Shown in pieces: positions 8,607-48,208 of a stretch of DNA of 64,000 nt. The DNA comes from Candidatus Omnitrophota bacterium. Lineage in GTDB: Bacteria > Omnitrophota > Gorgyraeia > B26-G9. How positions within the stretch are numbered: the first letter of the stretch is position 1; each line of letters begins with the position of its first letter. A model generated the notes under the pieces. That model had not been told where the DNA came from. It saw only the letters and a list, made by a program, of their open reading frames with translations, and did no database searches. A program made the position numbers and the translations under genes. The DNA lies in NCBI GenBank assembly GCA_043814605.1, contig JBDRJV010000047.1, positions 5,077-69,076 of the forward strand, given 5' to 3'.

Positions 8607-9833
8607 ATGATAAAGCCGCGAATATTAGCTAATGTGCTTAAAAGAGCAATCAAAAGTTTCCCGGCGGTTGTTGTTACCGGGCCTCGGCAATCCGGAAAAA
8701 CAACTTTATTGAAAACATTGTATTCAAAAACACATCGTTATGTTTCTTTGGAAGATCCGGATGTGAGAATGCGGGCAAAAGAGGACCCGGTGAGTTTTTT
8801 AGCGCAAAATAATGCGCCGGTAATTATTGATGAAATACAATATATTCCGGAGCTGCTTTCATATATAAAAACAAAAATTGATCAAAAAAGAAAACCCGGA
8901 CAATGGTTGTTTACGGGGTCTCAGAATTTTGTTTTAATGCAGGGAGTGAGCCAGTCTCTGGCGGGAAGAGCTGCGGTTGTTTCTCTTTTACCATTTTCTT
9001 ATGCGGAGCGGATAAACCAGGCGGGCAAAGCGCAGGATATTAATAACTGGGTGAAGATGCTGAATGTTGAGCAAATTTGTTCAAAAAAAGAATCTTTGAG
9101 TGAACTTATTTTAAGGGGGAATTATCCGGAGATTGCCAGTAAAAAAACAGTTGACCGGCAATTGTGGTGCGGTTCGTATATCTCTACTTACTTAGAAAGA
9201 GATGTGAGAAATTTGTCGGCCATTGGGGATTTAAGCCAGTTTGAAAGATTCTTAAAACTATGCGCGACAAGAACCGGACAAATTTTAAATCTTTCCGAAA
9301 TGGCAAAAGAAATCGGGGTGAGTGTTCCTACGGCAAAAAGGTGGATTTCAATCCTCGAAACAGGATATCAAATATATTTGCTGTATCCATATTATAAAAA
9401 CATCGGTAAACGTTTAATAAAAAGCCCAAAGCTGTATTTTTGTGATACCGCTTTGGCAGCATATTTGTTGGGAATCAATGATCGTGAAGTGATCTTAAAT
9501 AGCCCAAATTTTGGAAATATTTTTGAAACTATGATTATAAATGATTTTGTTAAACGTTTTTTGCATTTTGGGCAGATGCCTTCAATGTATTACTTGCGCA
9601 GCCGGGATGGATTAGAAATAGATTTGGTGATAGAGGTTAATCAGCAATTGCATTTATTTGAAATAAAGAGCGCGATGAATATTACTCAAAAACATGCAAG
9701 CGCGTTGATAAGACTAAAAGCAGATAAAAAATTAGCAATTAAAACTGCGGCGATAATTTCCCGGTCCAAAGATAATTATTTGCTCAGTAAAGGAGTGGTA
9801 AATTATAATTGGAAGAATATTCTTTCTTTTTGA
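8607..9833 (+). CDS. AAA+ ATPase with C-terminal DUF4143 / PD-(D/E)xK-like domain (COG1373 family)
   Basis: Walker A GPRQSGKTT and Walker B VIIDEIQ. C-terminal D..EID..EIK motif. Paralog of the ORFs at 12498 and 25186. Confidence 0.8.
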   Translation: MIKPRILANVLKRAIKSFPAVVVTGPRQSGKTTLLKTLYSKTHRYVSLEDPDVRMRAKEDPVSFLAQNNAPVIIDEIQYIPELLSYIKTKIDQKRKPGQWLFTGSQNFVLMQGVSQSLAGRAAVVSLLPFSYAERINQAGKAQDINNWVKMLNVEQICSKKESLSELILRGNYPEIASKKTVDRQLWCGSYISTYLERDVRNLSAIGDLSQFERFLKLCATRTGQILNLSEMAKEIGVSVPTAKRWISILETGYQIYLLYPYYKNIGKRLIKSPKLYFCDTALAAYLLGINDREVILNSPNFGNIFETMIINDFVKRFLHFGQMPSMYYLRSRDGLEIDLVIEVNQQLHLFEIKSAMNITQKHASALIRLKADKKLAIKTAAIISRSKDNYLLSKGVVNYNWKNILSF

Positions 9834-10256: not shown

Positions 10257-10352
10257 TTTTCTCTATTGCTTTTTAGTTTTAACAAAATATGAATTATGTA
10301 GTTTTGAAATAGATTGTAGAGATAAGTATGTTATAGAGAATTTTTGGTTTTT

Positions 10353-10420
10353 TCTCTCTACTAGTTGAAAACATTAATATATTTTCAGTGAAATCCCGCT
10401 AAGGCGGGGCTACTCGCTAC
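10353..10420 (+). repeat. REP-like dispersed palindromic element, copy 1
   Basis: ctctctact-agttgaaaacattaatatattttcag-tgaaatcccgctaaggcggggctactcgctac. Contains the CCCGC-TAAG-GCGGG hairpin. Confidence 0.8.
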
Positions 10421-10602
10421 TATTTACTTAAAAAAATAAGTTTAATTATTTTGTAATGAATAAAATATGAATGGTGAGTTTTGCAAGTGAACTGTATATA
10501 TAAGCGTATTTTAGAGGAATTGAGTATTTTTCTCTCTACTTGCTACTCGCTTGTGCCCGTAAGGGTACTACTCTCTACTTAAAAAAAGAAGGAGCTAAAA
10601 AC

Positions 10603-11820
10603 GTGCGCAACAACAGAAGAGTCGTAGTTACAGGAATTGGGATTGTTTCGGCATTAGGCATTGGCCGGGATAAGTTTTGGGATAATATTAAAAAAGGTAA
10701 GTCAGGGATATCTAAGATTACCTCAATAGATACATCTGCTTATAAATGCCATTATGGCGGAGAAGTAAAAGATTTTAATCCTGAAGATTTTATCCCGAAA
10801 AGAAGAATAAAGTTTTTAGGCAAAACATCACAGTTGGCAATTGCCGCGGCTTATTTAGCTTTACAAGATTCCGGTATTCCTTTAAAGCGAATCCCCAAAG
10901 AATCAATGGGTGTGATCATGGGAACAACTATTGGGGAGAAAGCTATAGAAGAGTTAGCTGCACAATGGGCCAAAGGCGGATTAAAAGAAATAGACAGAAA
11001 AAAACTTTTCCAGGCTGCTGCCAATAATATTCCGGCTAATGTAGCTATACAGTTTAAAGCCATGGGATTAAATTGTTTAATCCCCAATGCCTGTGCTGCG
11101 GGTAATTATGCAATTGGTTATGGATATGATTTAATAAGGAATAAAGATTTAAATTTTGCTTTAGTCGGTGGAAGTGAATCGTTTTCACCTTTAGCCTATG
11201 CCGGGTTTCAAAGGCTTTATGCTATGTCTCCGGATAAATGCAGTCCTTTTGATAAAAATAGAAAAGGCATGATGCTGGGAGAAGGTTCTGGAATATTATT
11301 TTTAGAATCTTTAGAATCAGCTTTAAAACGCAAAGTAAAGATTTACGCGGAAATTTTAGGTTACGGCTTATCCTGCGATGCTTATCATGCTACAGCGCCT
11401 GACCCCAAAGGCATTGCTCGAGTTATGCAAAAGGCGTTAGATCAAGCGAATATTAGTTATAAAGAGGTTGATTATGTTTGCGCGCACGGTACAGGTACTC
11501 CGGCTAATGATAAAGCCGAAAGCGCGGCAGTCAAGGAAGTTTTCAAAGAGAGGCATAAAGAAGTATTAGTTAGTTCAATAAAATCAATGCTCGGGCATAC
11601 AATGGGTGCGTCTTCAGCGATTGCAGGAGCAGCTTGTTGCTTAGGGATAAAAGAAGGAATTGTGCCGCCGACCATAAACTTTGAAACTCCGGATCCGGAA
11701 TGTGATATAGACTGCGTGCCGAATAAAGCGCGTAAAAAAGATCTGAATGTTGTTTTAAATAACGGCTTTGCTTTTGGCGGAAATAATTGCTGCGTGGCGT
11801 TTGGGAAATATAGCGGATAG
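10603..11820 (+). CDS. beta-ketoacyl-ACP synthase (FabF/KAS II-like), catalytic triad intact
   Basis: NACAAGNYAIG (Cys), CAHGTGT (His), SMLGHTMG (His). GTG start at 10603 with the same upstream leader (tactctctacttaaaaaaagaaggagc) as the 6771 gene. The ORF track extends to an upstream TTG at 10540, which I do not favour. Confidence 0.85.
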   Translation: MRNNRRVVVTGIGIVSALGIGRDKFWDNIKKGKSGISKITSIDTSAYKCHYGGEVKDFNPEDFIPKRRIKFLGKTSQLAIAAAYLALQDSGIPLKRIPKESMGVIMGTTIGEKAIEELAAQWAKGGLKEIDRKKLFQAAANNIPANVAIQFKAMGLNCLIPNACAAGNYAIGYGYDLIRNKDLNFALVGGSESFSPLAYAGFQRLYAMSPDKCSPFDKNRKGMMLGEGSGILFLESLESALKRKVKIYAEILGYGLSCDAYHATAPDPKGIARVMQKALDQANISYKEVDYVCAHGTGTPANDKAESAAVKEVFKERHKEVLVSSIKSMLGHTMGASSAIAGAACCLGIKEGIVPPTINFETPDPECDIDCVPNKARKKDLNVVLNNGFAFGGNNCCVAFGKYSG

Positions 11821-12121
11821 AAAAAAGTTACAAATTATAAATTATGAGTTACGAGTGAAAAGCTGAATTCTGAAAGCTGATGGCTGATAGCTAGTAATTT
11901 ATTTAACTGGTAAAGGGTACACAGGACAACCGGGTTAATGAAGGAAATATTTATACCTGCTAAAATTTATGTCAGGGGAACAATAACTCTGCTAAAATTT
12001 TAATAACTTGATAAAAAACAGTAAATGATTTATACAAAACAGGGTTGACAGTACTGATTTGTATAAGATTGAATATTTTAGAATTTATTTAAAAATATGG
12101 AGATAGAATCAGTATAGGCAG

Positions 12122-12230
12122 TTTTATACATCCGCGGCCTAAAACCGCGCCCATTTATGGCGCGGATAAAAGGAGGCCGCTTGAGTATTCCACCTCAGGA
12201 ACCACGGGCTTTAGCCCGTGGGGGTTCCAT
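12122..12230 (+). repeat. ~110-bp GC-rich structured element, copy A
   Basis: Nested stems GCGGCC/GGCCGC and CCGCGCC/GGCGCGG, plus hairpin GGAACCACGGGC-TTTA-GCCCGTGGGGGTTCC. Sharply GC-rich against the AT-rich background. Confidence 0.7.
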
Positions 12231-12497
12231 TAAAAAGCAATAACATTAATATCTGCAGTTAGTTGCATTATTAAAAAAGATAATTTTTCAAAAACAAAAA
12301 ATGACAAATTTAAAGTGATACTTTAAAATTATCAATAATTTATACAAATTAGTATTGACAGTACTGATTTGTATAAGTTTGGATGCGTAATAAGGATAAT
12401 AATATATTGTAAGGAAAAACATGACTTGACAGCAATATATTATGCCTGCTATAATTTATATAAAATTAATAATAACCCTGCTAAAATTTAGAAAAAA

Positions 12498-13745
12498 ATG
12501 TATATACATAGAGATCTCGAAAAAAAAATTATTAAATACTTAGATAGTCCGGAAATTTTGGCGATCATTGGCCCTCGGCAGAGCGGGAAGACTACGCTAA
12601 TTAAAAATGTTCTAAAAACTCTTAAAAACGCTGTATACATAGATTTTGAAGACAGAGAAGTTCTGGAATTATTTAATAGTGATATAAAGTCTTTTTATAA
12701 GTTATATGTTAAAGATTCTAAATATTTATTTGTTGACGAATTTCAATACGCGAAAGAAGGCGGCAAAAAGTTAAAGTATTTATATGATACTTTTAAACTA
12801 AAAATTATTATTTCCGGCTCTTCCAGCCTTGATCTTACAAAGCAGGCGATAAAATATTTAGTGGGGAGAGTTTTTGTTTTTTACCTTTATCCTTTTAGTT
12901 TCAAGGAATATCTGGATTTTCGCGATAAGTCATGTTATGAGAATATTTATTTAGATATCCATGAAACTGTCAAAGAATATTTTTTATACAAGAAAAAATC
13001 TATTCCGCTTATTTCTCCAGAAATGATAAAAAAAATTAATAAATATTATCATGAATATGCGATTTTTGGCGGATACCCCCGTGTAGTTCTGGCTAAAGGT
13101 ATTGAAGAAAAAATAACCGTTCTGAAAAATATTTACAACACTTACTTTTTAAGAGAAATAAGGGATATCCTACAGCTGAGTACAGAAGTGGAATTACAAA
13201 AGCTGATCAAATGCCTAGCGCTTCAGACAGGCAGTATAGTCTCATATAAAGAATTAAGCCAAACAACAAGTTTAAATTATAATAACCTGTTAAAACATTT
13301 AAATATCCTTGAGAATACTTTTGTGATAAAAAAACTTCTGCCGTTTTTTCGTAATAAAAGAACAGAAATCGCCAAAGCTCCGAAAATTTATTTTGTGGAT
13401 AATGGTTTGAGAAATATGTCGGTAGGTAATTTTCAGGACATGGGAGAACGAGTTGATAGAGGCAGTATTAATGAGAATTTTATTGCCGGAGAATTATTAA
13501 AGCAGGAATTTGCCATAAATTACTGGAGAACAAAATCTAACGCGGAAGTTGATTTTATCTTGGAAAAACAGGGCAAACACAGCGCGATTGAAGTAAAATC
13601 CAGATTGTCTTCGGATAAAATCGGTAGAGCATTAATCGCTTTTAAAGAAAAATATCCTGATTTTAGAATAACTATTGTTTCTGAAAATTATTATAGTTTT
13701 AATAAAAAAGAGCAGGTTTTTTTTCTGCCGTTATTTTTTGTTTAA
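12498..13745 (+). CDS. AAA+ ATPase with C-terminal DUF4143 / PD-(D/E)xK-like domain (COG1373 family)
   Basis: GPRQSGKTT, FVDEFQ, C-terminal EVDFIL...AIEVKS. Confidence 0.8.
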   Translation: MYIHRDLEKKIIKYLDSPEILAIIGPRQSGKTTLIKNVLKTLKNAVYIDFEDREVLELFNSDIKSFYKLYVKDSKYLFVDEFQYAKEGGKKLKYLYDTFKLKIIISGSSSLDLTKQAIKYLVGRVFVFYLYPFSFKEYLDFRDKSCYENIYLDIHETVKEYFLYKKKSIPLISPEMIKKINKYYHEYAIFGGYPRVVLAKGIEEKITVLKNIYNTYFLREIRDILQLSTEVELQKLIKCLALQTGSIVSYKELSQTTSLNYNNLLKHLNILENTFVIKKLLPFFRNKRTEIAKAPKIYFVDNGLRNMSVGNFQDMGERVDRGSINENFIAGELLKQEFAINYWRTKSNAEVDFILEKQGKHSAIEVKSRLSSDKIGRALIAFKEKYPDFRITIVSENYYSFNKKEQVFFLPLFFV

Positions 13746-13876
13746 AAAAGAAATAATTGCTGTGTCGCGTTTGGGAAATATAAATAATGTTGTGTAATGT
13801 TTAATGTGTTATGTGTAATGAATTTTTTATGCATCAAGCTCCAGGCTGCAAGCTTCAGGGGTTTTAGCTTGCGACT

Positions 13877-13934
13877 TGTTGAGAACATTAATATATTTTT
13901 AGCGAAATCCCGCTAAGGCGGGGCTACTCGCTAC
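13877..13934 (+). repeat. REP-like element, copy 2 (preceded by the gcatcaagctccaggctgcaagc module from 13831)
   Basis: Near-identical to copy 1. Confidence 0.8.
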
Positions 13935-13950
13935 TTTTAAAAGAGGCTTC

Positions 13951-15033
13951 ATGAACAAAAAACGGACAATATTTTTAACCGGTGCGACGGGATTAATCGC
14001 TTCCTATTTATTGAAATTACTTTTAGAAAACGGCAATAAAGTTTATGCTCTAGCTAGAGGTAAAAAAGATCAGTCTGCTAAAGATCGAGTAATTGACATG
14101 TTGAAATTCTGGCAGGCGGATATCTCGCCGGATTTATTTAAAAATTTAACTGTTGTTGAAGGAGATATTACTTATTCAGATTTAGTTAAGCTGGATGCAA
14201 AAGATATTTTAAATAAGCTTTATAATGAAATTGAAATAATTTTTCACAGCGCAGCATTAGCAGAATTAAAAGTTTTGTATGAAAAGATAAAAAAGATAAA
14301 TGTTGACGGCACCAGAAATGTTCTGGATTTTGCCCTAAAATGCAAAAAATTAAAAAAAGTAAATCATATCAGTACAGCATATGTTGTAGGAGATAAAAAC
14401 GGCATAGAATTTAGCGAAGATATGCTTGACGTCGGCCAGGGATTTCATAATACATACGAGCAAACTAAGTTTGAAGCAGAAGTTTTATGTCATGAATATA
14501 TAGATAACAAAGGATTAAATATCTCTATTTTTCGTCCAAGCATGGTAATGGGTGATTCAATAGAAGGAAAAACCAATAATTTTAGATTATTTTATGAGCC
14601 GCTGCATTTCTTTTCTAAAGAAATTTACGAAGCTTTCCCGGTAAATCCTAATTATACGCAAAACTTGATTAATAATGATGTTGTGGGAAAAGCGATTTTT
14701 GCATTAGGAGAAATAGAAAATATTGCAGTATATCATATTGTTTCTCCAAATCATATTACAATGCAGTTTTTTATGCAGACTGCAGCAGAACATTTTGGAT
14801 ACAAATTGCCAAAGCTTATCCCTATTGAAAAGTTTAATTTTAATCAATGGACAGCATCACAAAAACTTTTAGCAGAACCATTTATCCCATATTTTAATTT
14901 TAATACAAAATTTTTGTCTAAAAAAACAGGTGAAATTTTTAATAAAGTTAAACTTAAACTTCCAGAAATAAAAAAAGAGAGTTTAATTAAAATATTTAAT
15001 TTTTGCAATAAGGCTGATTTTATAAAAAATTAA
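13951..15033 (+). CDS. NAD(P)-binding thioester/fatty-acyl reductase-like protein (NAD_binding_4 / extended SDR)
   Basis: LTGATGLIASYL Rossmann motif and YEQTK (YxxxK). Architecture resembles terminal reductase domains and fatty acyl-CoA reductases. Could alternatively be a sugar epimerase. Confidence 0.6.
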   Translation: MNKKRTIFLTGATGLIASYLLKLLLENGNKVYALARGKKDQSAKDRVIDMLKFWQADISPDLFKNLTVVEGDITYSDLVKLDAKDILNKLYNEIEIIFHSAALAELKVLYEKIKKINVDGTRNVLDFALKCKKLKKVNHISTAYVVGDKNGIEFSEDMLDVGQGFHNTYEQTKFEAEVLCHEYIDNKGLNISIFRPSMVMGDSIEGKTNNFRLFYEPLHFFSKEIYEAFPVNPNYTQNLINNDVVGKAIFALGEIENIAVYHIVSPNHITMQFFMQTAAEHFGYKLPKLIPIEKFNFNQWTASQKLLAEPFIPYFNFNTKFLSKKTGEIFNKVKLKLPEIKKESLIKIFNFCNKADFIKN

Positions 15034-15047
15034 CAAAAGGCGAGAAA

Positions 15048-15647
15048 ATGGATATTTTAAAAATTATAAAGGAAAGAAAGAGTATTAGAAAATATCAGGA
15101 TAAGCCTATTCCAAAAGAAATAATTAATAAAATAATTGAAGCAGGTATTTGGGGGCCGTCTGTCCCAAGTTTTTTAAAAATCCAACCGTTTAAATTTGTT
15201 GTTGTAACTAAAAAAGAAATAATCGCAAAAATTTCTTCGCTATTAGAAAAGAAATCGTTAAAAGTTTCTGTAGCAGCTAAAATTTTACTGAAAGGAGCAA
15301 GCAATATTATTAATGCTGTTCCGGTGGTAGTTTTTGTTTACAAAACAAAAGATCTAGAGAATTCGCAGCATAAGTTTAAAGAGGTATATTTAAGTCTTAA
15401 AAAAGTGGTTAAAACTGCTCAAATATCTGCAATTTCAGCAGCAATCCAAAATATGATTTTAACTGCTGAAAAATTAGGGGTAGGGTCTTGCTGGTTAGAT
15501 ATCCCCTTGTTTTGCGAACAAAACATTAACAAGGTGCTAAATAACAATAATAAATTAATTGCTGTATTAACTCTTGGTTATCCTGCAGAAAAAGGGAAAC
15601 GATCACCAAGGAAACCATATGAGGAAGCAGTGGAATTTATAACATGA
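15048..15647 (+). CDS. nitroreductase-family flavoprotein
   Basis: N-terminal RKSIRKY motif typical of the nitroreductase family, about 200 aa. Confidence 0.7.
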   Translation: MDILKIIKERKSIRKYQDKPIPKEIINKIIEAGIWGPSVPSFLKIQPFKFVVVTKKEIIAKISSLLEKKSLKVSVAAKILLKGASNIINAVPVVVFVYKTKDLENSQHKFKEVYLSLKKVVKTAQISAISAAIQNMILTAEKLGVGSCWLDIPLFCEQNINKVLNNNNKLIAVLTLGYPAEKGKRSPRKPYEEAVEFIT

Positions 15648-17110
15648 ATAATAAATATGATGACATAATAATCGGAGCTGGTATTGGGGGATTAGTTTGT
15701 GGATGTTACTTAGCGAAACAAGGAAGAAAAGTTTTGATTGTTGAACAACATTTCCAAGCAGGTGGGTATTGTAGTTCATTTAAAAGAAAAGGTTTTACTT
15801 TTGATACTTCAATTCATTCAATAGGAAGTTTAAGAGAAGGAGGTAAAGTAAGAAAAATATTTAATGAACTTGGACTAGAAGATGAAATAGAATTAACCAG
15901 GTCAGACCCTACCGATATTTTAATTTTTCCGGGTCATACGATTTTTATAAGAAACAAGTTAAATGATACTATAGCTAGTTTTCAGGAATCATTTCCACAT
16001 GAATTTGAAAAAATTAAAGACTTTTTTTATTTTATTTACAATTTTGATTTTATAAAAAACTATTCAAATTTAAAAACTAAAACATTCAAAGATGTTTTAA
16101 ATATTTATTTTCAAGATGAAAAATTGAAATCTATAATCAGTATTATATTAGGCAATATTGGATTGCCTGCGAGCAGAGTCGCTGCATTACCAGCCATTGT
16201 TCTTTATAAAGAATTTATTTTGGATGGGGGGTATTATCCTAAAGGAGGCATGCAATCATTTTCAAATGGTTTAGCAAGAAAATTTAAAAAATTAGGAGGA
16301 GAATTAAGATTAAAAAATAAAGTTGAAAAAATAATTATAAAAAAAAATAAAGCGGTAGGAATAATTATTGGTAAAGAAGAAAAAATATTTTCTGATAATG
16401 TTATTTCGAATTGTGATGCTACGCATACTTTTTTAGATCTTATAGGGAAAAAATTTTTGTCTGATAAGTTTGTTAAAAAAATTGATAATCTTGAAACTTC
16501 AGCATCTGCTTTTGTTGTATATTTAGGTTTAAATAAGAGTTATAATTCAATTTTAAAAAACAGATGTAGTTGGTGGTGTTATTTAAGTGATAAATATGAT
16601 GTGGAAAAGGTATTTTCAGATATTAAAAGAAAAAATAAACCATATTCTGATAATTTTGTGTTTTGTATATTTACATCCTCACATGATAGATCTCTCGCTC
16701 CTGAAAGAGGAGAGACAATCTCTTTAGTTAGTCTAGCGACAGTTAAGGATCTAGATTTTTGGAAAAAAAATAAGGAAAAATTTGCAGATGATTTAATTAA
16801 AAGAGCAGAAAAATTTATTCCAGAGCTATCAAAACATATTATTGTAAAAGAAATAGCAACTCCACATACTATGCAGCGATATACTCTTAATAAAGATGGG
16901 GCTGCTTATGGATGGGCTTCTACTGTAACTCAAATTGATAAAGAAATTATGCCTAGAGAAACAAACATAAAAAATTTATACTTAACTGGACATTGGACTA
17001 CTCAGGGAAGTGGCCAGGGAGGGGTTTCAACTGTAGCTTATTCTGGTAGAAGTATAGCTAAATTACTGATTAGAAGAAAAAATTTTTATGAGAAAAAAGG
17101 GATTAAATAA
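15644..17110 (+). CDS. FAD-dependent oxidoreductase, phytoene-desaturase/amine-oxidase (CrtI-like) family
   Basis: Dinucleotide-binding IIGAGIGGL...VEQHFQAGGYC near the N-terminus, about 488 aa. The stop overlaps the start of the downstream kinase (ATGA). Confidence 0.75.
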   Translation: MNNKYDDIIIGAGIGGLVCGCYLAKQGRKVLIVEQHFQAGGYCSSFKRKGFTFDTSIHSIGSLREGGKVRKIFNELGLEDEIELTRSDPTDILIFPGHTIFIRNKLNDTIASFQESFPHEFEKIKDFFYFIYNFDFIKNYSNLKTKTFKDVLNIYFQDEKLKSIISIILGNIGLPASRVAALPAIVLYKEFILDGGYYPKGGMQSFSNGLARKFKKLGGELRLKNKVEKIIIKKNKAVGIIIGKEEKIFSDNVISNCDATHTFLDLIGKKFLSDKFVKKIDNLETSASAFVVYLGLNKSYNSILKNRCSWWCYLSDKYDVEKVFSDIKRKNKPYSDNFVFCIFTSSHDRSLAPERGETISLVSLATVKDLDFWKKNKEKFADDLIKRAEKFIPELSKHIIVKEIATPHTMQRYTLNKDGAAYGWASTVTQIDKEIMPRETNIKNLYLTGHWTTQGSGQGGVSTVAYSGRSIAKLLIRRKNFYEKKGIK

Positions 17111-19329
17111 TGAATTTATTTTCTTTAACTAGTATAGTTGTAATTCTTTCTACTTTGGGGCTTGGATTTTTTATTTTTATAACAAATAAAAATAATAAAG
17201 TTGCTAGTTCTTATGGAGCGTTAGCTATTGCAGCAGGTATCTGGGGAATAGGAGCTTTTTTATTTTCGACTACTTCTAACAAAGAAACAGCGTTATTTGG
17301 GTGGAGAATAGCACATATAGGTATAATATTTACACCGCCACTTTTTTTCCATTTTGTTTGTAGATTAGCTAATTTAAACAAAAAAAGGTTGCTTTTTATT
17401 AGTTATTTGTCGGGCTTGTTATTTTTGTTACTTTGTTTTTTAGATACTAAATTATTTTTAGGGGATATAGATTTTGTTTTTAATAGTTTTTATTTTTTAG
17501 CTTGGTATAAACAGAAAAATATAGGTTACTTATTATATTATATTCTGTTTTATCATATTTTATTAGGATATGCATTTTTACTATTGTTGCAGTTTTATAC
17601 AAAAATAATAGGTATTATGCGTATTCGAGTCAAATATATAATTTTAGCTTCTGTAATTGGTTGGTTAGGTCCACATGGTATGTATGTATTAATTTTAGGA
17701 ATTAAAAAATTATATCCAATTTCAAATCTTTGTATAGGTATATATCCATTTATTATTGCATACGCAATTGCAAAACATAGACTTATGGATGTCAAGGTTG
17801 CAATTACACGTAGTGCAATTTTACTTATAGTGTATATTTGTATAGTTGGATTCCCTCTATTAGTAATAGGAGTAGGTAAAGAATACTTGCAGAATAGTTT
17901 TGGAAATAAATGGTTTTACCCTCCTTTAGCATTATATACATTATTAGCTTTGTTTGCTCCGTATATTTATTTAACTTTACAAACAAGAGCTGAGCAAAAA
18001 AGAATCAGACAGCAAATACATCTGCATCAATCTTTAAAAGCAGCTTCTAAAACAACAATTGAGGTGCAAAGTATTGATAAACTAGCTAAAATTATTCCCA
18101 GATATTTAATCCGGCTTTACAGCCGGTTAGATAATAAAATTAGCCATATTACTTTGTTTCTTAAGGATAAGAAAAAAGAAGAATATCATTTGCGTTCATC
18201 TGTAGGAAACCAAAAATTGCAATCAGATATCTTGATTAATTCCGACAGCTACCTTGCGAAATGGTTTACCAAGGTCAGAGAAGTTTTAGTGGAAAATGGA
18301 GCCGTAAAAGCCAAAGAAGTGGAAGTTTTAGTGTATGAGGATATTGATTTTTGGATGAATAAAGCCAGTATTTTGAGTGTGCCTTACAAAGGATTAAATA
18401 AAGTACTGAACAATTTAAAAAAAGAAATGAAAGAATTAAAAGCCAGTGTGATTTTGCCCTCTGTCTACCAAAAAGAATTGTTAGGATTTTTGATTTTAGG
18501 CGAGAAAACTCCGGATCCGTATTCATTAAATGATATTGATACTTTTTCTATTCTGGCTAATGACAGTGCTATGGCGTTTAAGGCTGCGCAATTATTTGAG
18601 GATTTAAAGATTGCGCAGGCACGCTTGATCCAATCAGAAAAACTAAACCTTCTGGGCCAGCTGGCCTCATCCATGGCGCATGAAATTAATAATCCTCTGG
18701 CAATTATTTCCGGCAATGTGCAGTTATTGCTTATGGATGAATCGGATGAGAGCAAGATGAAATTATTAACTAAAATCAATGACCAGACTGAACGCGGTTA
18801 TAAAATTATCCACCGCTTGCTAAATTTTTCCAAGCTTCCTAAAGAAGACATTAAAGAAATTGATATTAATCGTCTGGTAGATGAAACACTGGAATTGATC
18901 AATCATAAGATCGTGCACGGTAATATTGAACTGCAAAAGGATTTTAAAGCAACAGATATAATCCGCGGTAATCCCACGCAAATCCAGGAAGTTATCTTAA
19001 ACCTGTGTGTTAATGCTATCCAAGCTATGCCCCAGGGCGGGAAACTGATGATCAATACCAGCCGCGCGGGCGATATGGTGCAGATAGAAGTTAAGGATAC
19101 AGGAAAAGGCATCCCGCCGGAAGAAGTAAAGGATATATTTGATCCGTTCTTTACCAAGGGCAAGGAAAACGGTACAGGGTTGGGATTGTTTGTGGCCAGC
19201 CAGATCATGAGCCTGCATAACGGATTAATAAAAGTTAAAAGTAAGGTTGGCGAAGGCACTAGTTTTGTGTTAAAATTTGCTTTAGGCGATGAAGGGCCGA
19301 AAGGCACGGAAAGTGGGGTCAGGTCTTGA
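17110..19329 (+). CDS. sensor histidine kinase, multi-TM sensor + GAF-like middle + HisKA + HATPase_c
   Basis: Multi-TM N-terminus. HEINNPLAIISGN H-box. GTGLGLFVA G2 box. Long near-identical blocks shared with the 21453 kinase. Confidence 0.85.
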   Translation: MNLFSLTSIVVILSTLGLGFFIFITNKNNKVASSYGALAIAAGIWGIGAFLFSTTSNKETALFGWRIAHIGIIFTPPLFFHFVCRLANLNKKRLLFISYLSGLLFLLLCFLDTKLFLGDIDFVFNSFYFLAWYKQKNIGYLLYYILFYHILLGYAFLLLLQFYTKIIGIMRIRVKYIILASVIGWLGPHGMYVLILGIKKLYPISNLCIGIYPFIIAYAIAKHRLMDVKVAITRSAILLIVYICIVGFPLLVIGVGKEYLQNSFGNKWFYPPLALYTLLALFAPYIYLTLQTRAEQKRIRQQIHLHQSLKAASKTTIEVQSIDKLAKIIPRYLIRLYSRLDNKISHITLFLKDKKKEEYHLRSSVGNQKLQSDILINSDSYLAKWFTKVREVLVENGAVKAKEVEVLVYEDIDFWMNKASILSVPYKGLNKVLNNLKKEMKELKASVILPSVYQKELLGFLILGEKTPDPYSLNDIDTFSILANDSAMAFKAAQLFEDLKIAQARLIQSEKLNLLGQLASSMAHEINNPLAIISGNVQLLLMDESDESKMKLLTKINDQTERGYKIIHRLLNFSKLPKEDIKEIDINRLVDETLELINHKIVHGNIELQKDFKATDIIRGNPTQIQEVILNLCVNAIQAMPQGGKLMINTSRAGDMVQIEVKDTGKGIPPEEVKDIFDPFFTKGKENGTGLGLFVASQIMSLHNGLIKVKSKVGEGTSFVLKFALGDEGPKGTESGVRS

Positions 19330-19367
19330 AACTTGACAAAAAGTGATTTGAATAATAATATTGTAAT

Positions 19368-20213
19368 ATGGCAAGACCATTAAGAATAGAATATGACGGA
19401 GCAGTATATCACGTAACATCGCGAGGTAATGCGAAAGAACCTATCTTTAAGAATGCTGAAGATAGGTTTAATTTTTTTGAAGTACTAGCAGAAGCAAAGA
19501 AAAAGCATAATATTATATGTCATGCGTATTGTTTAATGGATAATCATTATCATTTAGTTGTGGAAACTCCTGAGGGAAATTTGAGTAGGGCAATGAGGCA
19601 TATAAATGGAGTTTATACGCAAAGTTTTAACCGCAAGCATAAAAGAGTAGGTCATGTGTTTCAAGGTAGATATAAAGCGATGTTGGTAGATAGGGATGAA
19701 TATCTATTGGAAGTAATTAGATATGTGGTTTTAAATCCCGTACGAGCTGGATTAGTTAAAAGTGCGGAAAAATGGCAATGGAGTAGTTATTGTGGAACTG
19801 TGGGGATGAGCAAAAAAGAGAGATTTCTGGATACAGATTGGGTGTTGGAATATTTTGGAGGCACAAAAAATATTGCTCAAAAAAAATACCGAGAATATGT
19901 AGATGAGGGAATTGAAAAAGAAATAGTAAAGAAAAAGATTAGTCAGCAGAGTATTCTTGGCAGTGAAAGTTTTAAGCAAAAAATCTCTAAGTATGTGCAA
20001 GGGAAAAAAGAAATAAAAGAAATTTCAAGGTGCCAACGTTATGTGGGACGTCCTCAATTAGAAGATATTTTTAAGGGAGCGCAAAAAGTCAAAGCAGAAA
20101 GAAATGCTTTAATTAGAAAAGCAATAACAGATTACGGGTATCAGCAAAAAGAGATAGCGCAGTGGTTGGGGATGCATTATACCAGCGTAAGTAAAATACT
20201 AAGCAGGGAATAA
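19368..20213 (+). CDS. IS200-like Y1 (HUH) transposase, REP-associated (RAYT)-like, with C-terminal DnaA_C-like HTH
   Basis: HUH motif HYHLVVET. Catalytic-Tyr region GRYKAM. The C-terminal ~80 aa resemble the DnaA C-terminal DNA-binding domain. Paralog at 43640. Confidence 0.7.
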   Translation: MARPLRIEYDGAVYHVTSRGNAKEPIFKNAEDRFNFFEVLAEAKKKHNIICHAYCLMDNHYHLVVETPEGNLSRAMRHINGVYTQSFNRKHKRVGHVFQGRYKAMLVDRDEYLLEVIRYVVLNPVRAGLVKSAEKWQWSSYCGTVGMSKKERFLDTDWVLEYFGGTKNIAQKKYREYVDEGIEKEIVKKKISQQSILGSESFKQKISKYVQGKKEIKEISRCQRYVGRPQLEDIFKGAQKVKAERNALIRKAITDYGYQQKEIAQWLGMHYTSVSKILSRE

Positions 20214-20274
20214 AAAGCTAAAATTCACCGCAAATGCGGGACAGGCAAGACCTGAATCCATGCCTTAGGAAATG

Positions 20275-20376
20275 GAACTCCCACGGGCTAAACATGGTTC
20301 CTGGGGTGGAATACTCAAGCGGCATCCTTTTATCCGCGCCATAAATGGGCGCGGTTTTAGGCCGCGGATGTATAAA
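20275..20376 (-). repeat. ~110-bp GC-rich structured element, copy B (inverted; 60 nt downstream of the transposase stop)
   Basis: Reverse complement matches copy A at ~93% identity. Confidence 0.7.
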
Positions 20377-20421
20377 ATGCTAAAATTCAAGACCTGACCC
20401 CATTACGCTTTATTCGCAGAA

Positions 20422-21438
20422 TTGTTGAATGAGTTCTTTGAAAATAGTGAATTAAAATTAACTTTTGAAGTTTTATTATGCAATATTGGAATAAGCGCTA
20501 AAAAAGTGGCAGCATTATCAGCGTTGATTTTTTACAGAGATTATATTTTAGATGGTGGTTACTATCCTATGGGGGGAATGGATGAGTTTGCTAAAATTTT
20601 ATCAAACAGATTTGTTGAGTTAGGAGGAGAATTAATTTTAAATAATAGAGTTAATAAAATTTGTTTGTATAAAAATACAATTAAAGGGGTAGTATTAAGC
20701 GATGGAAAGTTTATTGATAGTAAATTAGTTGTTTCTAATTCTGATGCTACTCAAACATTTAAAGATTTGTTAGCAGATATAGATACAAAAGAAAAAAAAC
20801 TGGTTGAGCAATTTAAAATTTCCCCACCATTATTTGCTTTGTATTTAGGATTAGATTGTAAGTATAGTGATTTTACAAATGAAACATGTAATATGTGGTG
20901 GGTTAAAACGAATGATTTGGATAGCTACTATTCTGATTTAAAAAATAATATTTTAAGCGACAGTAATAATTTTTTTATGACCAGTTTTCCTGCGGCACAT
21001 ACAAATAATGTTGATGCTAACATAAAAAACACTATGCAATTTTTTATGTATGCTCCATATGAAAATGAGGATTTTTGGGGTAAACATAGGATAAGAGTTG
21101 AAGATAAATTAATAAATGAAGCGTCTGCAATTTTTAAAGGGTTTAAAAAAAATATAAAAGTTAAAGTTAGTGCGACACCTTTAACGTTTAATCGGTATAC
21201 CTTAAATAGATCAGGTTCTCCTTACGGGTGGGCGTCAACATTGGACCAATTAAGCAATTCAGTTTTTCCTCAAAAAACGTCAATAAATAATTTATATTTA
21301 GTTGGGCATTGGTGTACCATAGGTAGCGGGCAAGGCGGGGTTCCAAAAGTATTGTTTTCGGGGAGAAAAGCTGCATATTTAATAACTAAGCAAGCAAAAA
21401 TGAAATGGAAATTTAAGAAAAATATTTTAACTTATTAA
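20422..21438 (+). pseudogene. 5'-truncated paralog of the CrtI-like FAD oxidoreductase (lacks the FAD-binding N-terminus)
   Basis: Aligns to residues ~155-488 of the 15644 ORF (ILDGGYYP, GHW.T.GSGQGGV) at ~40% identity. The reading frame begins right after the transposase-plus-GC-element. Confidence 0.6.
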
Positions 21439-21452
21439 GATTGGAATAAATA

Positions 21453-23684
21453 ATGAACCTTTTTTCTTTTTCGTCATTAATAGTTTTTGTATCAAATTTG
21501 ATTTTGACTATTTTTTTATTGATTCAAGGAAGGAAGCAAAAAGTTAGTTATATTTTGAGTATTTTTAGCTTGCTTGCTACTGTTTGGGGATTAGGCGCGT
21601 ATAAATTTTCTTCTACCAACTTGATTGAAGAAGCTTTATTTTGGAGAAAGATAGCTAATGTGGCAGTTATTTTTAGCCCTGTTTGTTACTATTATTTTAT
21701 ATGTGAATATTTAGAGTTAAAGAACAAAAAGCATAAAATGCTTCTTTTTGTATCTTTTCTTTTTAGCATATTTTTTGTTTTTTCGAATTTCTTTTTACCG
21801 CCTAAGTTTTTTGTTGGTGGTTTAAGAATCGTTTTTAGCCAGTTCTACTATCCAGATTGGTTTCAATATAAGAGTTTTTTGTATTTATTTTTTTATGGAA
21901 CATTTTATTTGTTATTATTAGGATATGCTTTTCTTTTATTGCTGACGGCATATGTAAAAGCTACCCCTAAGCTAAGAAATACATTGAAGTATTTTATTTT
22001 GGGTTCAGTATTTGGATGGTTAGGCCCGACGTTTATGTGGCTGATAGAATTTAGAATAGACATATATCCTTATGCAAATTTCTTAATAGCAATATACCCA
22101 GCAATTTGGGCCTATGCTATTATAAAACATCGTTTAATGGATATTAAAGTTGCAATTACGCGCGGAGCAATTCTTTTAATAGTTTACGGATTTATCGTAG
22201 GATTGCCATTATTAACAATTTTAATAGCAAAAGATTATTTGCAAAATAATTTTGCAGATAAATGGTTTTATCCGCCATTGGCTTTGTATACTCTGTTAGC
22301 TTTATTTGCGCCGTATATTTATCTAACATTGCAAACAAAAGCTGAGCAAAAAAGAATACGTCAGCAAATCCATTTGCATCAATCTTTAAAAGCCGCGTCT
22401 AAAACTACCATTGAAGTGCAAAGCATTGATAAGCTGGCTAAAATCATTCCTAGGTACCTAATTAGGCTTTACAGCCGATTGGACAATAAGATCAGCCACA
22501 TTACATTATTCCTTAAAGATAAGAAAAAAGAAGAGTATAATTTGCGTTCATCTGTAGGAAACCAAAAATTGCAATCAGATATTTTGATTAATTCCGATAG
22601 CTACCTTGTGAAATGGTTTACCAAGGTCAGAGAAGTTTTAGTAGAAAACGGAGTATTAAGAGCCAAGGAAGTGGAAGTATTGGTTTATGAGGATATTGAT
22701 TTTTGGATGAATAAGGCTAGTATTTTAAGTGTGCCTTATAAAGGCTTGAATAAAGTATTATTAAATCTAAAAAAAGAAATGAGGGGATTAAAAGCCAGTG
22801 TGATTTTACCCTCTGTCTACCAAAAAGAATTGTTAGGGTTTTTGATTTTAGGCGAGAAAACTCCGGATCCGTATTCTTTAAATGATATTGATACTTTGTT
22901 AATCCTATCAAATGATATGACAATAGCTTTAAAATCACAGGAAATTATTGAAGATTTGACAAAAACACAAGCACATTTAGTGCAGTCAGAGAAACTAAAG
23001 GTTGTGGGAGAAATAGCTTCTTGTTTAGCTCATGAAGTAAAAAATCCGCTAACAACTCTAAAAACTTTCTCTGAATATTTACCACAAAAGATGCAAGAAA
23101 AAGATGAAGAATTTATTGAAAAGTATCGCAGATTGGTTCCTCCTGAGATTGAAAGGATAAATTCAATAGTTCAGAAATTATTAGATTTTTCTAAGCCAAA
23201 TCTTCCTAATTTTCAAAAAACAGATTTAAAAGCGTTGATAAAAGAGGTGGTAGAGTTTTTGAGTGAGAAGTTTTTAAAAAATAAAATAAAAGTAATAGAA
23301 AATTATTCGAAAGATTCCCTAATGCTAAAAATTGATCAGCACCAGATAAGACAAGTATTGTTGAACCTGATATTAAACGCGATAGATGCTATGCCCGAAG
23401 GAGGCAATATTAGTATAAGCTCAGAAATGTTAGATAACGCTATAAAAATAGAAATTAGTGATACAGGCAAAGGGATTCCTGAGGATGAGTTGAAAAATAT
23501 CTTTGATCCGTTCTTTACCAAGGGTAAGGAAAACGGTACAGGGCTAGGCTTGTTTGTGGCCAACCAGATCATGAGCCTGCATAATGGTTTAATAAAAGTT
23601 AAAAGTAAGTATGGCGAAGGCACCAGTTTTGTGCTAAAATTTGCTTTAGGCGATGAAGGGCCCAAGGGAACGGAGAAGAGTTAA
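21453..23684 (+). CDS. sensor histidine kinase, multi-TM sensor + GAF-like middle + HisKA + HATPase_c
   Basis: HEVKNPLTTLKTF H-box. The middle domain and the last ~90 aa are near-identical to the 17110 kinase. The DHp domain matches the 30290 kinase instead. Confidence 0.85.
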   Translation: MNLFSFSSLIVFVSNLILTIFLLIQGRKQKVSYILSIFSLLATVWGLGAYKFSSTNLIEEALFWRKIANVAVIFSPVCYYYFICEYLELKNKKHKMLLFVSFLFSIFFVFSNFFLPPKFFVGGLRIVFSQFYYPDWFQYKSFLYLFFYGTFYLLLLGYAFLLLLTAYVKATPKLRNTLKYFILGSVFGWLGPTFMWLIEFRIDIYPYANFLIAIYPAIWAYAIIKHRLMDIKVAITRGAILLIVYGFIVGLPLLTILIAKDYLQNNFADKWFYPPLALYTLLALFAPYIYLTLQTKAEQKRIRQQIHLHQSLKAASKTTIEVQSIDKLAKIIPRYLIRLYSRLDNKISHITLFLKDKKKEEYNLRSSVGNQKLQSDILINSDSYLVKWFTKVREVLVENGVLRAKEVEVLVYEDIDFWMNKASILSVPYKGLNKVLLNLKKEMRGLKASVILPSVYQKELLGFLILGEKTPDPYSLNDIDTLLILSNDMTIALKSQEIIEDLTKTQAHLVQSEKLKVVGEIASCLAHEVKNPLTTLKTFSEYLPQKMQEKDEEFIEKYRRLVPPEIERINSIVQKLLDFSKPNLPNFQKTDLKALIKEVVEFLSEKFLKNKIKVIENYSKDSLMLKIDQHQIRQVLLNLILNAIDAMPEGGNISISSEMLDNAIKIEISDTGKGIPEDELKNIFDPFFTKGKENGTGLGLFVANQIMSLHNGLIKVKSKYGEGTSFVLKFALGDEGPKGTEKS

Positions 23685-23884
23685 AATTTAATATTGTGTA
23701 GTGTTTAATGTGTTATGTGTCATGAATTTTTATGCAGCAAGCTCCAGGCTGCAAGCTTCAGGGGTTTTAGCTTGCGACTTGAAGCTTGAGGCTTGTGGCT
23801 TATATTTTTTCATTAAACAATAAACTTTACACATTACACAAAAATTTACGGATATTATATTGATTTATACACGGAGGTTAAAAG

Positions 23885-27472: not shown

Positions 27473-27515
27473 GGTGAAGGGTGATGGTGGAAGGGGGAGG
27501 AAAAGCTTTTTTCTT

Positions 27516-27587
27516 GCTACTTTCTACTCTTTGAGAACATTAATATATTTTCAGCGAAATCCCGCTAAGGCGGGGCTCCTCGCTACT
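27516..27587 (+). repeat. REP-like element, copy 3 (immediately upstream of mtnP)
   Basis: ctactctttgagaacattaatatattttcagcgaaatcccgctaaggcggggctcctcgctac. Confidence 0.8.
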
Positions 27588-27608
27588 AATCAATAACTAG
27601 GAGCGATT

Positions 27609-28493: not shown

Positions 28494-28555
28494 ACCCCGT
28501 CTCAGCGGGATTTCGCTAAAAATTAAATTAATGGTCTCAACAAGTCACAAGTCTA
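28494..28555 (-). repeat. REP-like element, copy 4, variant hairpin CCCGCTGAGACGGGG (immediately downstream of mtnP, inverted relative to copy 3)
   Basis: Reverse complement matches the consensus. Followed by the gcttgcagcctggaacttgatgcat module. Confidence 0.75.
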
Positions 28556-28636
28556 AAAAACCCTGAGGCTTGCAGCCTGGAACTTGATGCATAAAAATTC
28601 ATTATGCAATTATTGGAATTTTTATCTGCTTCGTTT

Positions 28637-35035: not shown

Positions 35036-36417
35036 TGAAATTCTATAAATCTTTAATATTACTTTTTCTCTTACTTGTAATTTTTTCTCAGGGTTTGCCA
35101 GTATTGGCGCAGACGCTTTTTCCTATTAGAATTTTAGAAAATCCATCATTAACTTTTTCTACTTTGCAATCTGCCTATAACCAGGCGCAATCTGGCCAGA
35201 CAATTCAATGCCGCGCTGTAACTTTAAATGAATCAGTTACTCTTAACCGTGATATTGCGGTTACGATTTGCGGCGGCTATAACAGTGATTTTTCGCAAAA
35301 AACAGATGCAGTAACAGTTTTAATCGGCGGAGTTGCTTTAAACAGCGGTACAGCAATTTTGGATAATTTATCAGTTTCTTTTACGGACACGCAAACTGTT
35401 CCGGATACGCCGACTTTAGTGGAAGTCAGATATTTGGACACAAAAGTTTACTTAAATTGGAGCAGTGTGAATAATGCGGATGGATATATTGTCAAATACA
35501 GTACAACCAGCGGAACTTATACTTATACTGAATACATTGAAGCTGGTACAAGCCATGTGGTCACAAATTTAACGAATAATACGCAATATTATTTTGTGGT
35601 GAGCGCGTATAATGCGAGCGGCGTAAGTGATAATTCTAATGAATTAAGTGCGATGCCCCAGCCGCGGGAAGCAATTGCCGGCTATGAAACAGTATTTAGT
35701 AATGTTTCAACAAATGGGCTTTTTGCCGCCATGCCGATTATTATGAGTGAAGATGGGACGATTACCAGTATTAGTATGTTCCATAAAGCTGGCACAGGCT
35801 CTATGGTGTTAGGAATTTATAGCGGAGCAAATTCTCCCCAAACTTTACTAGCTACAACTCAAACCACAGCGATTGAAAATACAACAGGCTGGCAAACCAT
35901 AACGTTACTTAATCCTGTGCATGCGGAAAATGCAGAAACAATTTGGATAGCTTGGCTTTATTCGGTTAATCCCGGGATTCGCTATACAACAGGCGAACCG
36001 TCAGCTTATGCTTGCGGTGATAATTGGGATTCTTTAGGTGGTACAATGCCGGCTAATTTTCCCGCAAGTGGTGATTCCACTGTAATCGCTTCCTTATATA
36101 TAAATTATGTGCAAAACCAGCCGCCGCATATTACTGAACTTATTCCGGCAAATACAGCAACTCAAGAAGAAACAGATACCTTGACTTTTGAAGTTACTGC
36201 CAGTGATTATCATTTTGATCCGATTGAATATCAATTTGTAATTGATGATAATATTGTGCAATCCTGGACAAGTACAAATACTTATAATTGGGATACGCAG
36301 GAGAGTGATTTTGGCAAGCATTCTTTTAAAGTGCAAACTCGGGATGATATCGGCGCGCAGGAAGAGTCTGCTGTGCGCGAATTATTTATTTATCACAAAC
36401 CAATTTCAATAGAGTAG
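35036..36417 (+). CDS. secreted protein with fibronectin type III domain
   Basis: Signal peptide MKFYKSLILLFLLLVIFSQGLPVLAQ. FN3-like block (YLNWSSV..DGYIVKYS...YYFVVSAYN). Confidence 0.6.
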
Positions 36418-36484
36418 CAAGTAGCCCCGCCTTAGCGGGATTTCGCTTAAAATATATTACTGTTCTCAACAAGTAGAGAGTATT
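36413..36484 (-). repeat. REP-like element, copy 5
   Basis: Reverse complement: atactctctacttgttgagaacagtaatatattttaagcgaaatcccgctaaggcggggctacttgcta. Confidence 0.8.
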
Positions 36485-47766: not shown

Positions 47767-48114
47767 AATGTTCAGAGAACATTTTAGACTAAAGACAACA
47801 GACTATAGACCAAAGACCAAAATTTTGAAAAACTTTTATTCTTGTACGATTGTAAATTGGTGTTAACGGAATAAAGTGATTAGCTGATTATTGGGAATCG
47901 AATAAAAACGCACTTTGTAAAATTATGTTTATTTTCTAATAATTTATGCCTGAAGACTTCGCCGCCAAAAAACCATCCCTGGTTTACGGCGTTTCGACGT
48001 CCTGTCTTCATCTTCATACATAAATTAAAGAAAATTACACATAATTTTTCCATAATTGCTTTTTTTATTTGATTCCCCGATAATTAAGATTATAAATAAT
48101 AGTTTTTTGTTTTT

Positions 48115-48176
48115 AACTTGTGACTTGTTGAGAACATTAATTTAATTTTTAGCGAAATCCCGCTGAGACGGGGAAA
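48115..48176 (+). repeat. REP-like element, copy 6, variant hairpin CCCGCTGAGACGGGG
   Basis: cttgtgacttgttgagaacattaatttaatttttagcgaaatcccgctgagacgggg. Same variant as copy 4. Confidence 0.75.
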
Positions 48177-48208
48177 CTTGGGGCTTGCAGCTATTCAAAA
48201 ATAAATAT

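Follow-up and report, generated by a model that had tools for sequence, protein, structure and literature searches.

A small GC-rich hairpin repeat of Candidatus Omnitrophota, a candidate non-autonomous insertion element with IS200/IS605-like anatomy

Results

A GC-rich repeat is present at four unrelated sites

A 64,000-nt stretch of a Candidatus Omnitrophota metagenome-assembled genome (MAG) (GenBank assembly GCA_043814605.1, contig JBDRJV010000047.1, positions 5,077 to 69,076; hereafter the window) carries two inverted copies, A and B, of a GC-rich element slightly longer than 100 nt. We are fairly confident that this element is an inserted mobile repeat, and we lean towards the more specific reading that it is a small (∼80-105 bp), GC-rich, non-coding, non-autonomous insertion element of Candidatus Omnitrophota with an IS200/IS605-like anatomy. 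The four copies found have unrelated surroundings. Copy A is in an intergenic region ahead of a DUF4143 ATPase gene, copy B is in a transposase unit, and the other two, one on an independent metagenome contig (L016) and one elsewhere in the same MAG (protein P0243), are at genes encoding family 4 (GT4) glycosyltransferases.

The inverted pair, which an earlier note made from the letters of the window had pointed out, is real. Comparison of the window with itself by blastn recovers it at 93.6% identity over 110 nt (E = 7e-41), and repeat finding in the window returns inverted arms of 83 nt at 12122-12204 and 20295-20377 (98% identical), together with a second arm pair at 12210-12231 and 20271-20292. 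The limits first proposed (12122-12230 and 20275-20376) need small corrections, the element proper being as listed in Table 1, where its sense strand is defined as the + strand of the window at copy A. Between these limits, copies A and B are 94% identical. As assessed by a covariance model with filters off, they are the sole copies in the 64 kb, and the 21-nt inner hairpin occurs exactly twice in the window versus never in 100 shuffles. The copies, of 105 and 102 nt, have GC contents of 57 and 54%, respectively, in a window with 34.9% GC, so that the contrast noted earlier holds for the background, but the figure of more than 60% does not, since 60% is reached only as a 60-nt peak. Copy B does lie just after the transposase gene, starting 58 rather than 60 nt past its stop codon.

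A metagenome scan with a 19-mer core of the element returned one true copy and four chance or tRNA matches. The true copy (L016, positions 2418-2500; 81% identical), on a contig with 36% GC, is in frame within the gene for a 402-aa GT4 glycosyltransferase (P0121) and falls between the two Pfam domains of this enzyme, forming a clean 27-aa insertion relative to six homologues, all of which are without exactly these 27 residues. The nearest homologues (P0122 and P0123; 375-377 aa) are 94% identical to P0121 outside the insertion, and the remaining four, some of which are from named Omnitrophota, are more distant. At the DNA level, the empty sites in two loci (L034 and L035) read TATTTG followed directly by ATTATTGG, whereas the filled site reads CATTTG, then the element from ATACATCC to GGCTCC, and then ATTATTGG. 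The difference is an insertion of 81 nt, with an ambiguity of at most 2 nt (AT) and no real target duplication.

The fourth copy was found by a HMMER search of 1.84 billion representative proteins using the 41-aa antisense reading of copy B, which identified P0243 (MFH1460124.1), a family 4 glycosyltransferase encoded on a 162-kb contig of the same MAG, at 86% identity over residues 1-37. The element is at the annotated start of this protein, where its antisense reading gives residues 1-36. Because the Pfam domain runs from residue 57, the element lies just upstream of the probable true start, in a gene over-extended by annotation, and the protein itself probably does not include the ∼41 N-terminal residues. 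By supplying an ATG and an open frame, the element has thus led public annotation to lengthen one glycosyltransferase by ∼41 residues, and it adds 27 residues to a second one, P0121. The annotated start of P0243 is at the ATG of the element, and a GTG at codon 42 is preceded by AAGGA. The earlier note would have abandoned its reading had A and B been the only two copies genome-wide, with no association to transposases, and the copies in P0243, in the same MAG, and in L016 show that they are not.

Other searches were negative. No copy was found in ∼100 kb of other Omnitrophota DNA, no diverged copies were detected by nhmmer and covariance models over the loci compared, and three scans of viral contigs returned no element copies. 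A genome collection scanned with the 21-mer of the inner hairpin, which varies between copies, gave four matches, all to unrelated GC-rich hairpins. A word-indexed protein search with six-frame peptides of the element had no matches, a false negative considering that the same query gives E = 7e-11 against P0121 locally. As a side observation, a 365-aa predicted protein with six tandem repeats (P0242) carries ..LHGSWDQILRRRPF.., which resembles the antisense peptide of the element, HGSWGGILKRHPF. The protein might result from translation of tRNA-like DNA in tandem array.

Copy B interrupts the right end of a transposase unit

The 281-aa transposase upstream of copy B has Y1_Tnp as its sole domain at Pfam thresholds. 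A helix-turn-helix (HTH) domain is not called by Pfam; among the more than 8000 relatives of this protein, many, including close ones, have precomputed HTH domains. Its Y1 HUH core with Y..NP, its C-terminal extension, and the perfect 17-bp inverted repeats of the unit, which contain GGGGTCAG and fit the published motif GGGGWSAS, identify the unit as a TIRtron, i.e. a TIRYT gene flanked by terminal inverted repeats with that motif (Di Nocera 2013; PMC3733652). TIRYT proteins correspond to TnpA-Y1 subclass 2.1, and no REP-like sequences are reported near such genes (PMC6006769).

The right-repeat sequence of this unit is present twice in the window, as an outer perfect copy (20378-20402) and an inner degenerate one (20217-20260), whose insert carries the hairpin CCGCAAATGCGG (20228-20247). 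With the element excised, these copies are ∼40 nt apart, in agreement with a period of 39 nt in the left-repeat dimer of a related unit (L013). Three Omnitrophota loci (L005, L009, and L013), with transposases that are 67-69% identical, have a stop codon that leads directly into ..AATTCAAGACCTGACCCCA, with no GC-rich element. Because these units run straight from stop codon to repeat, copy B is an insertion, placed where two right repeats follow each other in tandem. What look like direct repeats of 11-16 nt on either side of it belong to this dimer and do not represent a target duplication.

The earlier note had also suggested that the element is the cognate subterminal structure of the transposase, which does not agree with a transposase that has 17-bp repeats of its own or with three units that are without the element. 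A looser version, in which the element is a REPIN-like passenger mobilized by the neighboring TIRYT enzyme and copy B was placed there through that link, has several points in its favor: copy B is within the unit and copy A only 7 kb away, TIRYT is a Y1 HUH enzyme whose DNA substrates are unknown (PMC6006769), and the style of insertion suits HUH enzymes. We nevertheless consider it unlikely. Besides its absence from the three homologous units, the element is present on just one side of the gene, the repeats of the unit (GGGGTCAGGTCTTGAA) have nothing in common with its ends, the L016 and P0243 copies are not beside a transposase in the available sequence, and a published survey found no REP-like sequences near subclass 2.1 genes (PMC6006769). 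If TIRYT were the mover after all, the element would be a first handle on the function of a very large transposase-like family.

The element has unlike ends and, in copy A, two subterminal hairpins

From left to right, the element consists of ATACATCC, a nested hairpin, the conserved single-stranded TTGAGTATTCCACC, a second hairpin, and a final AT (Table 1). The left hairpin begins 8 nt inside the element and the right one stops 2 nt short of its end. All copies begin with ATACATCC directly 3' of TTTT, TTTG, or GTTT, and the three available as DNA (A, B, and L016) have ATACATCCGCGGCC in common at the left end and TCCAT at the right end. In L016 the flank is ATTTG, and back-translation of the protein suggests GTTT for P0243, which makes four cases in a T-rich genome. 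Because the empty site of L016 holds the bases that precede the left end, the flank bases are host sequence. The two ends (ATACATCCGCGG.. and ..GGGGGTTCCAT) are not complementary, i.e. there are no terminal inverted repeats. Insertion sequences of the IS200/IS605 type always insert 3' to a tetra- or pentanucleotide target, have no inverted or direct repeats, and carry subterminal hairpins (PMC5027513). The element resembles them in having neither terminal inverted repeats nor a target-site duplication, as judged for the latter from L016 versus its two empty sites and from the pre-existing dimer around copy B.

Copy A folds significantly better than shuffled sequences, with z-scores of -4.5 to -5.4 as RNA or DNA on either strand. 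Copy B (z of -2.1/-1.2, versus -5.4/-5.0 for copy A) is not significantly better than shuffles; it is decayed, its right hairpin being destroyed by the loss of 3 nt and its outer left stem containing a mismatch. The L016 copy (z of -3.3) is without the right hairpin, so that subterminal hairpins are present at both ends in copy A only. In L016, both left stems are retained while loops and joining strands have diverged, and two compensatory changes are seen: the innermost pair of P1 goes from T-A to A-T and the third pair of P2 from G-C to C-G. These changes were taken from direct reading and independent folds rather than from pair counts, the model alignment being offset by one column in the inner stem of L016.

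The strong predicted structure and the two compensatory changes would also suit a small structured RNA gene or a cis-acting RNA, an option raised earlier, in which GC richness would stem from RNA structure in an AT-rich genome. There is, in addition, a promoter-like site (11969-11998) directed toward copy A. We hold this to be quite unlikely. No Rfam family matches at gathering threshold across the whole window, and nothing relevant appears at E ≤ 10 in 11800-12600; no terminator was found; orientation relative to neighboring genes varies among the copies, one of which is translated in frame in a glycosyltransferase; and the right hairpin has been lost in copy B and L016. A coding role was rejected. 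Although the element is open in three of six reading frames, a short open reading frame (ORF) that follows AAGGAGG in copy A is conserved neither in copy B nor in L016, and small ORFs across the element have no match in the protein collection.

A 20-nt core is identical to the 5' end of a tRNA gene

Read on the antisense strand, a 20-nt core of the element is identical to nt 1-20 of a tRNA-Tyr(GTA) gene, a real gene on an unrelated contig (L015, 7102-7187). The equivalent in copy B (20305-20324, +) has its last base changed. A tRNA-Ser gene (L022) matches 16 nt of the core in register. Considering that two of the 17 matches outside the family (four from the metagenome scan and 13 from the viral scan) are in-register tRNA matches, which is far above chance, the core is by sequence identity assigned to genuine class II tRNA 5' sequence. 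The remainder of the element is not tRNA-like: ARAGORN predicts no tRNA in the window and the Rfam tRNA model finds nothing.

These matches leave room for a relic of a tRNA-Tyr gene region, i.e. a 5' fragment plus hairpins or the remnant of an attachment site, spread by recombination and not by transposition. This is very improbable, because the similarity ends after 20 nt and because a recombining relic does not account for the insertion of exactly 81 nt, with conserved ends, into a coding gene. A further lead concerns target choice. The tetranucleotide preceding the inner hairpin is the reverse complement of the flank, AAAA/TTTT in A and B and CAAA/TTTG in L016, which hints at target pairing with a single informative case. 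It is a long shot that the element is the first passenger DNA for a TIRYT-type Y1 enzyme, choosing its own target through AAAA/CAAA pairing and carrying a 20-nt tRNA-Tyr 5' mimic or captured piece.

The surroundings of the two copies do not form a unit

The earlier note described the two copies as an inverted pair spanning ∼8 kb. Nothing points to a unit between them. Inverted copies of ∼105 nt with 94% identity could aid recombination or mislead an assembler, but a composite or invertible 8-kb unit, or a chimeric assembly join, is the least probable of the alternatives considered, since an ordinary operon-like row of genes, all of them on the + strand, runs through the span and continues outside it, the span ends match no other discontinuity, and further copies occur both on another contig of this MAG and in an independent metagenome. 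That A and B are inverted relative to each other is incidental.

Copy A is, as first noted, inside a cassette at 11.8-13.75 kb, which corresponds to a 1.97-kb segment between 33-nt direct repeats that are 94% identical (11780-11812 and 13750-13782). The segment has the appearance of an insertion in which the end of the ketoacyl synthase gene was restored, and it contains no recombinase. A second DUF4143 ATPase gene (8607-9833) follows the preceding synthase gene, and in L005 such a gene is immediately after the TIRYT gene.

Boxes resembling CTGCTAAAATT, which had been suggested as a preferred target or cleavage sequence, do recur in the window (14 matches with at most one mismatch versus 5.2 expected), but they have other identities. 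The four near copy A are 126-248 nt away, within a duplicated promoter module. One of them is in a sigma-70-type match (12426-12455) that ends 42 nt before the ATPase start codon and another is 10 nt before the same codon, while the other two belong to the duplicated copy of the same 50-nt module (11951-12000 and 12440-12489). They are predicted extended -10 elements (TGnTAAAAT/TGnTATAAT). The two boxes near copy B are GCTAAAATTCA, part of the duplicated right end of the transposase unit. No box touches an element end, the sequence abutting the left end being TTTT or TTTG. Copy A is also flanked by two copies of a 60-nt module (12015-12074 and 12325-12384; 82% identical), each with an operator-like near-palindrome, TTATACAAA..CAGTACTG..TTTGTATAA, that overlaps TTGACA.

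Table 1. Features of the element and its surroundings in the window
Feature	Position	Strand	Details
Element copy A, full length	12126..12230	+	Starts ATACATCC, ends GGTTCCAT; covariance model 123.7 bits; DNA fold z -5.35
Element copy B, decayed, 102 nt	20272..20373	-	Inside transposase unit, between two copies of right repeat; covariance model 123.2 bits
Left-end nested hairpin, copy A	12134..12180	+	Outer stem P1 GCGGCCT/AGGCCGC, inner stem P2 CCGCGCC-N7-GGCGCGG; from folds
Short stem ATAC.TC / GA.GTAT, can close around left hairpin	12126-12132 / 12183-12188	+	From folds
Right-end hairpin P4, copy A	12198..12228	+	GGAACC ACGGGC TTTA GCCCGT GGG GGTTCC; from folds
20-nt core, antisense reads GGTGGAATACTCAAGCGGCC	12175..12194	-	Identical to nt 1-20 of tRNA-Tyr(GTA) gene
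GTTTT, directly 5' of copy A left end	12121..12125	+	T-rich flank common to all copies
ATTTT, directly 5' of copy B left end	20374..20378	-	T-rich flank
1.97-kb segment with copy A and DUF4143 ATPase gene	11780..13782	+	Between 33-nt direct repeats of ketoacyl synthase 3' end
Sigma-70-type promoter, TTGACA-18-nt spacer-TGcTATAAT, for DUF4143 ATPase gene (ATG 12498)	12426..12455	+	12/12 match; holds one box
TIRYT-type Y1 (HUH) transposase, 281 aa, MFH1460756.1 (100% identical; 76.7-kb contig)	19368..20213	+	HYH, RYVVLNP, C-terminal extension; Pfam Y1_Tnp 7e-13
Left terminal inverted repeat of transposase unit (TIRtron), TGGGGTCAGGTCTTGAA	19314..19330	+	Overlaps histidine kinase stop codon
Outer right terminal inverted repeat	20386..20402	-	Perfect complement of left one
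Inner degenerate right-repeat copy	20217..20260	-	GCTAAAATTCA, then 18-20-nt insert, then CAAGACCTGAATCCA

Other observations in the window and in related loci

The transposase unit (19314-20404) is exactly at a rearrangement junction, with 17110-19329 on one side and 20404-21438 on the other, and the histidine kinase gene upstream terminates within its left repeat. Directly after the right repeat, a CrtI-like frame aligns from residue 148 of a full-length paralogue (15644-17110; 40% identical), indicating that it is a 5'-truncated copy. It is followed by a second kinase gene (21453-23684), which has 62% identity to the first. Assembly breaks are seen 60-180 nt upstream of the TIRYT gene in related Omnitrophota that were assembled independently (L006, L007, L008, L009, L010, L011, and L012). 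L005 has an IS1182/IS5-type transposase gene at this position, suggesting that the breaks are probably due to a multi-copy insertion sequence.

Two other repeats were seen. A ∼75-nt intergenic repeat is more abundant in the window than the GC-rich element, with six copies (10341-10424, 13860-13938, 27507-27588, 28495-28559 (-), 36413-36482 (-), and 48103-48191), several of them just upstream of genes. The consensus reads ..CTTGTTGAGAACATTAATATATTTTTAGCGAAATCCCGCTAAGGCGGGGCTACTCGCTAC.. and includes a small hairpin, CCCGC-TAAG-GCGGG, that is invariant. This repeat could act as a promoter or leader module or form a further repeat family. A 94-nt intergenic stretch containing GCAAGCTCCAGGCTGCAAGCTTCAGGGGTTTTAGCTTGCGACTTG is present at 13785-13878, after the ATPase segment, and at 23689-23781, after the second kinase gene (95% identical), and part of it recurs at 28541-28604 (-).

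Discussion

The GC-rich element described here has no inverted ends, no target duplication, unlike ends that both bear a hairpin in copy A, and a left end next to a T-rich tetranucleotide in the four known copies, which is consistent with the single-strand pattern of the IS200/IS605 type. Judged by this anatomy, movement as a single strand in the IS200/IS605 manner is the most likely way of moving, and it is from the same features that we infer both mechanism and enzyme class. Involvement of an HUH enzyme in particular is possible, although we regard it as doubtful. In such a scheme, a Y1-type enzyme supplied in trans would recognize the hairpins on one DNA strand, cut between TTTK and ATAC at the left and after CCAT at the right, and the excised strand would be pasted beside another TTTK ("peel and paste"). 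The family may no longer be moving, considering that there are few copies, at least two of which are decayed.

Several findings weigh against the insertion element that we favor. Neither an autonomous element sharing these ends nor a cognate transposase was found, and the known copies number four, with none in the ∼100 kb of other Omnitrophota DNA and one in the metagenome scan. A T-rich flank is weak evidence at 35% GC. The right hairpin is intact in copy A only, where its distance from the end is shorter than in IS608. Copies A and B have opposite orientations, and the genes of the region are nearly all on the same strand, which misfits a strict lagging-strand bias.

Catalogues of small non-autonomous repeats are poor outside well-studied phyla, and no such repeat of Omnitrophota appears to be described in the literature that we searched. 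The element is a further example of a familiar kind, the small bacterial mobile repeat, and a modest addition to that catalogue. Two other classes were considered and set aside. A classical DDE-type miniature inverted-repeat transposable element would have terminal inverted repeats and a target-site duplication, of which the element has neither, and inspection by eye shows neither the RYYYAAC/GTTRRRY cores nor the single palindrome of an integron attC site.

Among known systems, the TIRtron describes the unit at 19314-20402, with its GGGGWSAS repeats, repeat dimers, and Y1 core with C-terminal extension, but in it the GC-rich element is a passenger and not a component. With REP/REPIN sequences and RAYT, the element shares hairpins of a kind tied in the literature to Y1 HUH enzymes, and a related enzyme gene adjoins copy B. 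The "mobilisable REPIN" of the earlier note therefore keeps its first half, since mobility is indicated by a filled versus two empty sites, four contexts, and conserved ends, but none of the defining features of a REPIN is present. The element is not a 20-40-bp palindrome or a symmetric dimer, has an asymmetric two-domain structure without GTAG/CTAC or CGTC/GACG, and is neither abundant (two copies in 64 kb) nor found on both sides of the transposase gene or at the three homologous loci. Rickettsia palindromic elements (RPEs) are hairpin repeats of ∼100-150 bp that can be present in frame inside unrelated protein genes and be translated (PMC10969869). The element is likewise a hairpin-forming repeat able to sit in frame in protein genes and be translated, but it has no sequence relation to RPEs, comes from another phylum, is GC-rich in an AT-rich genome, and provides one in-frame case versus dozens. 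Finally, it differs from the palindrome-associated miniatures of IS200/IS605 in being without a known parent or matching TnpA, in its very low copy number, in its nested and unusually long left hairpin, and in a right hairpin that nearly touches the end. With these miniatures it shares unlike ends, no inverted repeats, no target duplication, and a size of ∼100 bp, and it is consistent with them in the hairpins at both ends of copy A and in the T-rich tetranucleotide next to the left end of the four known copies.

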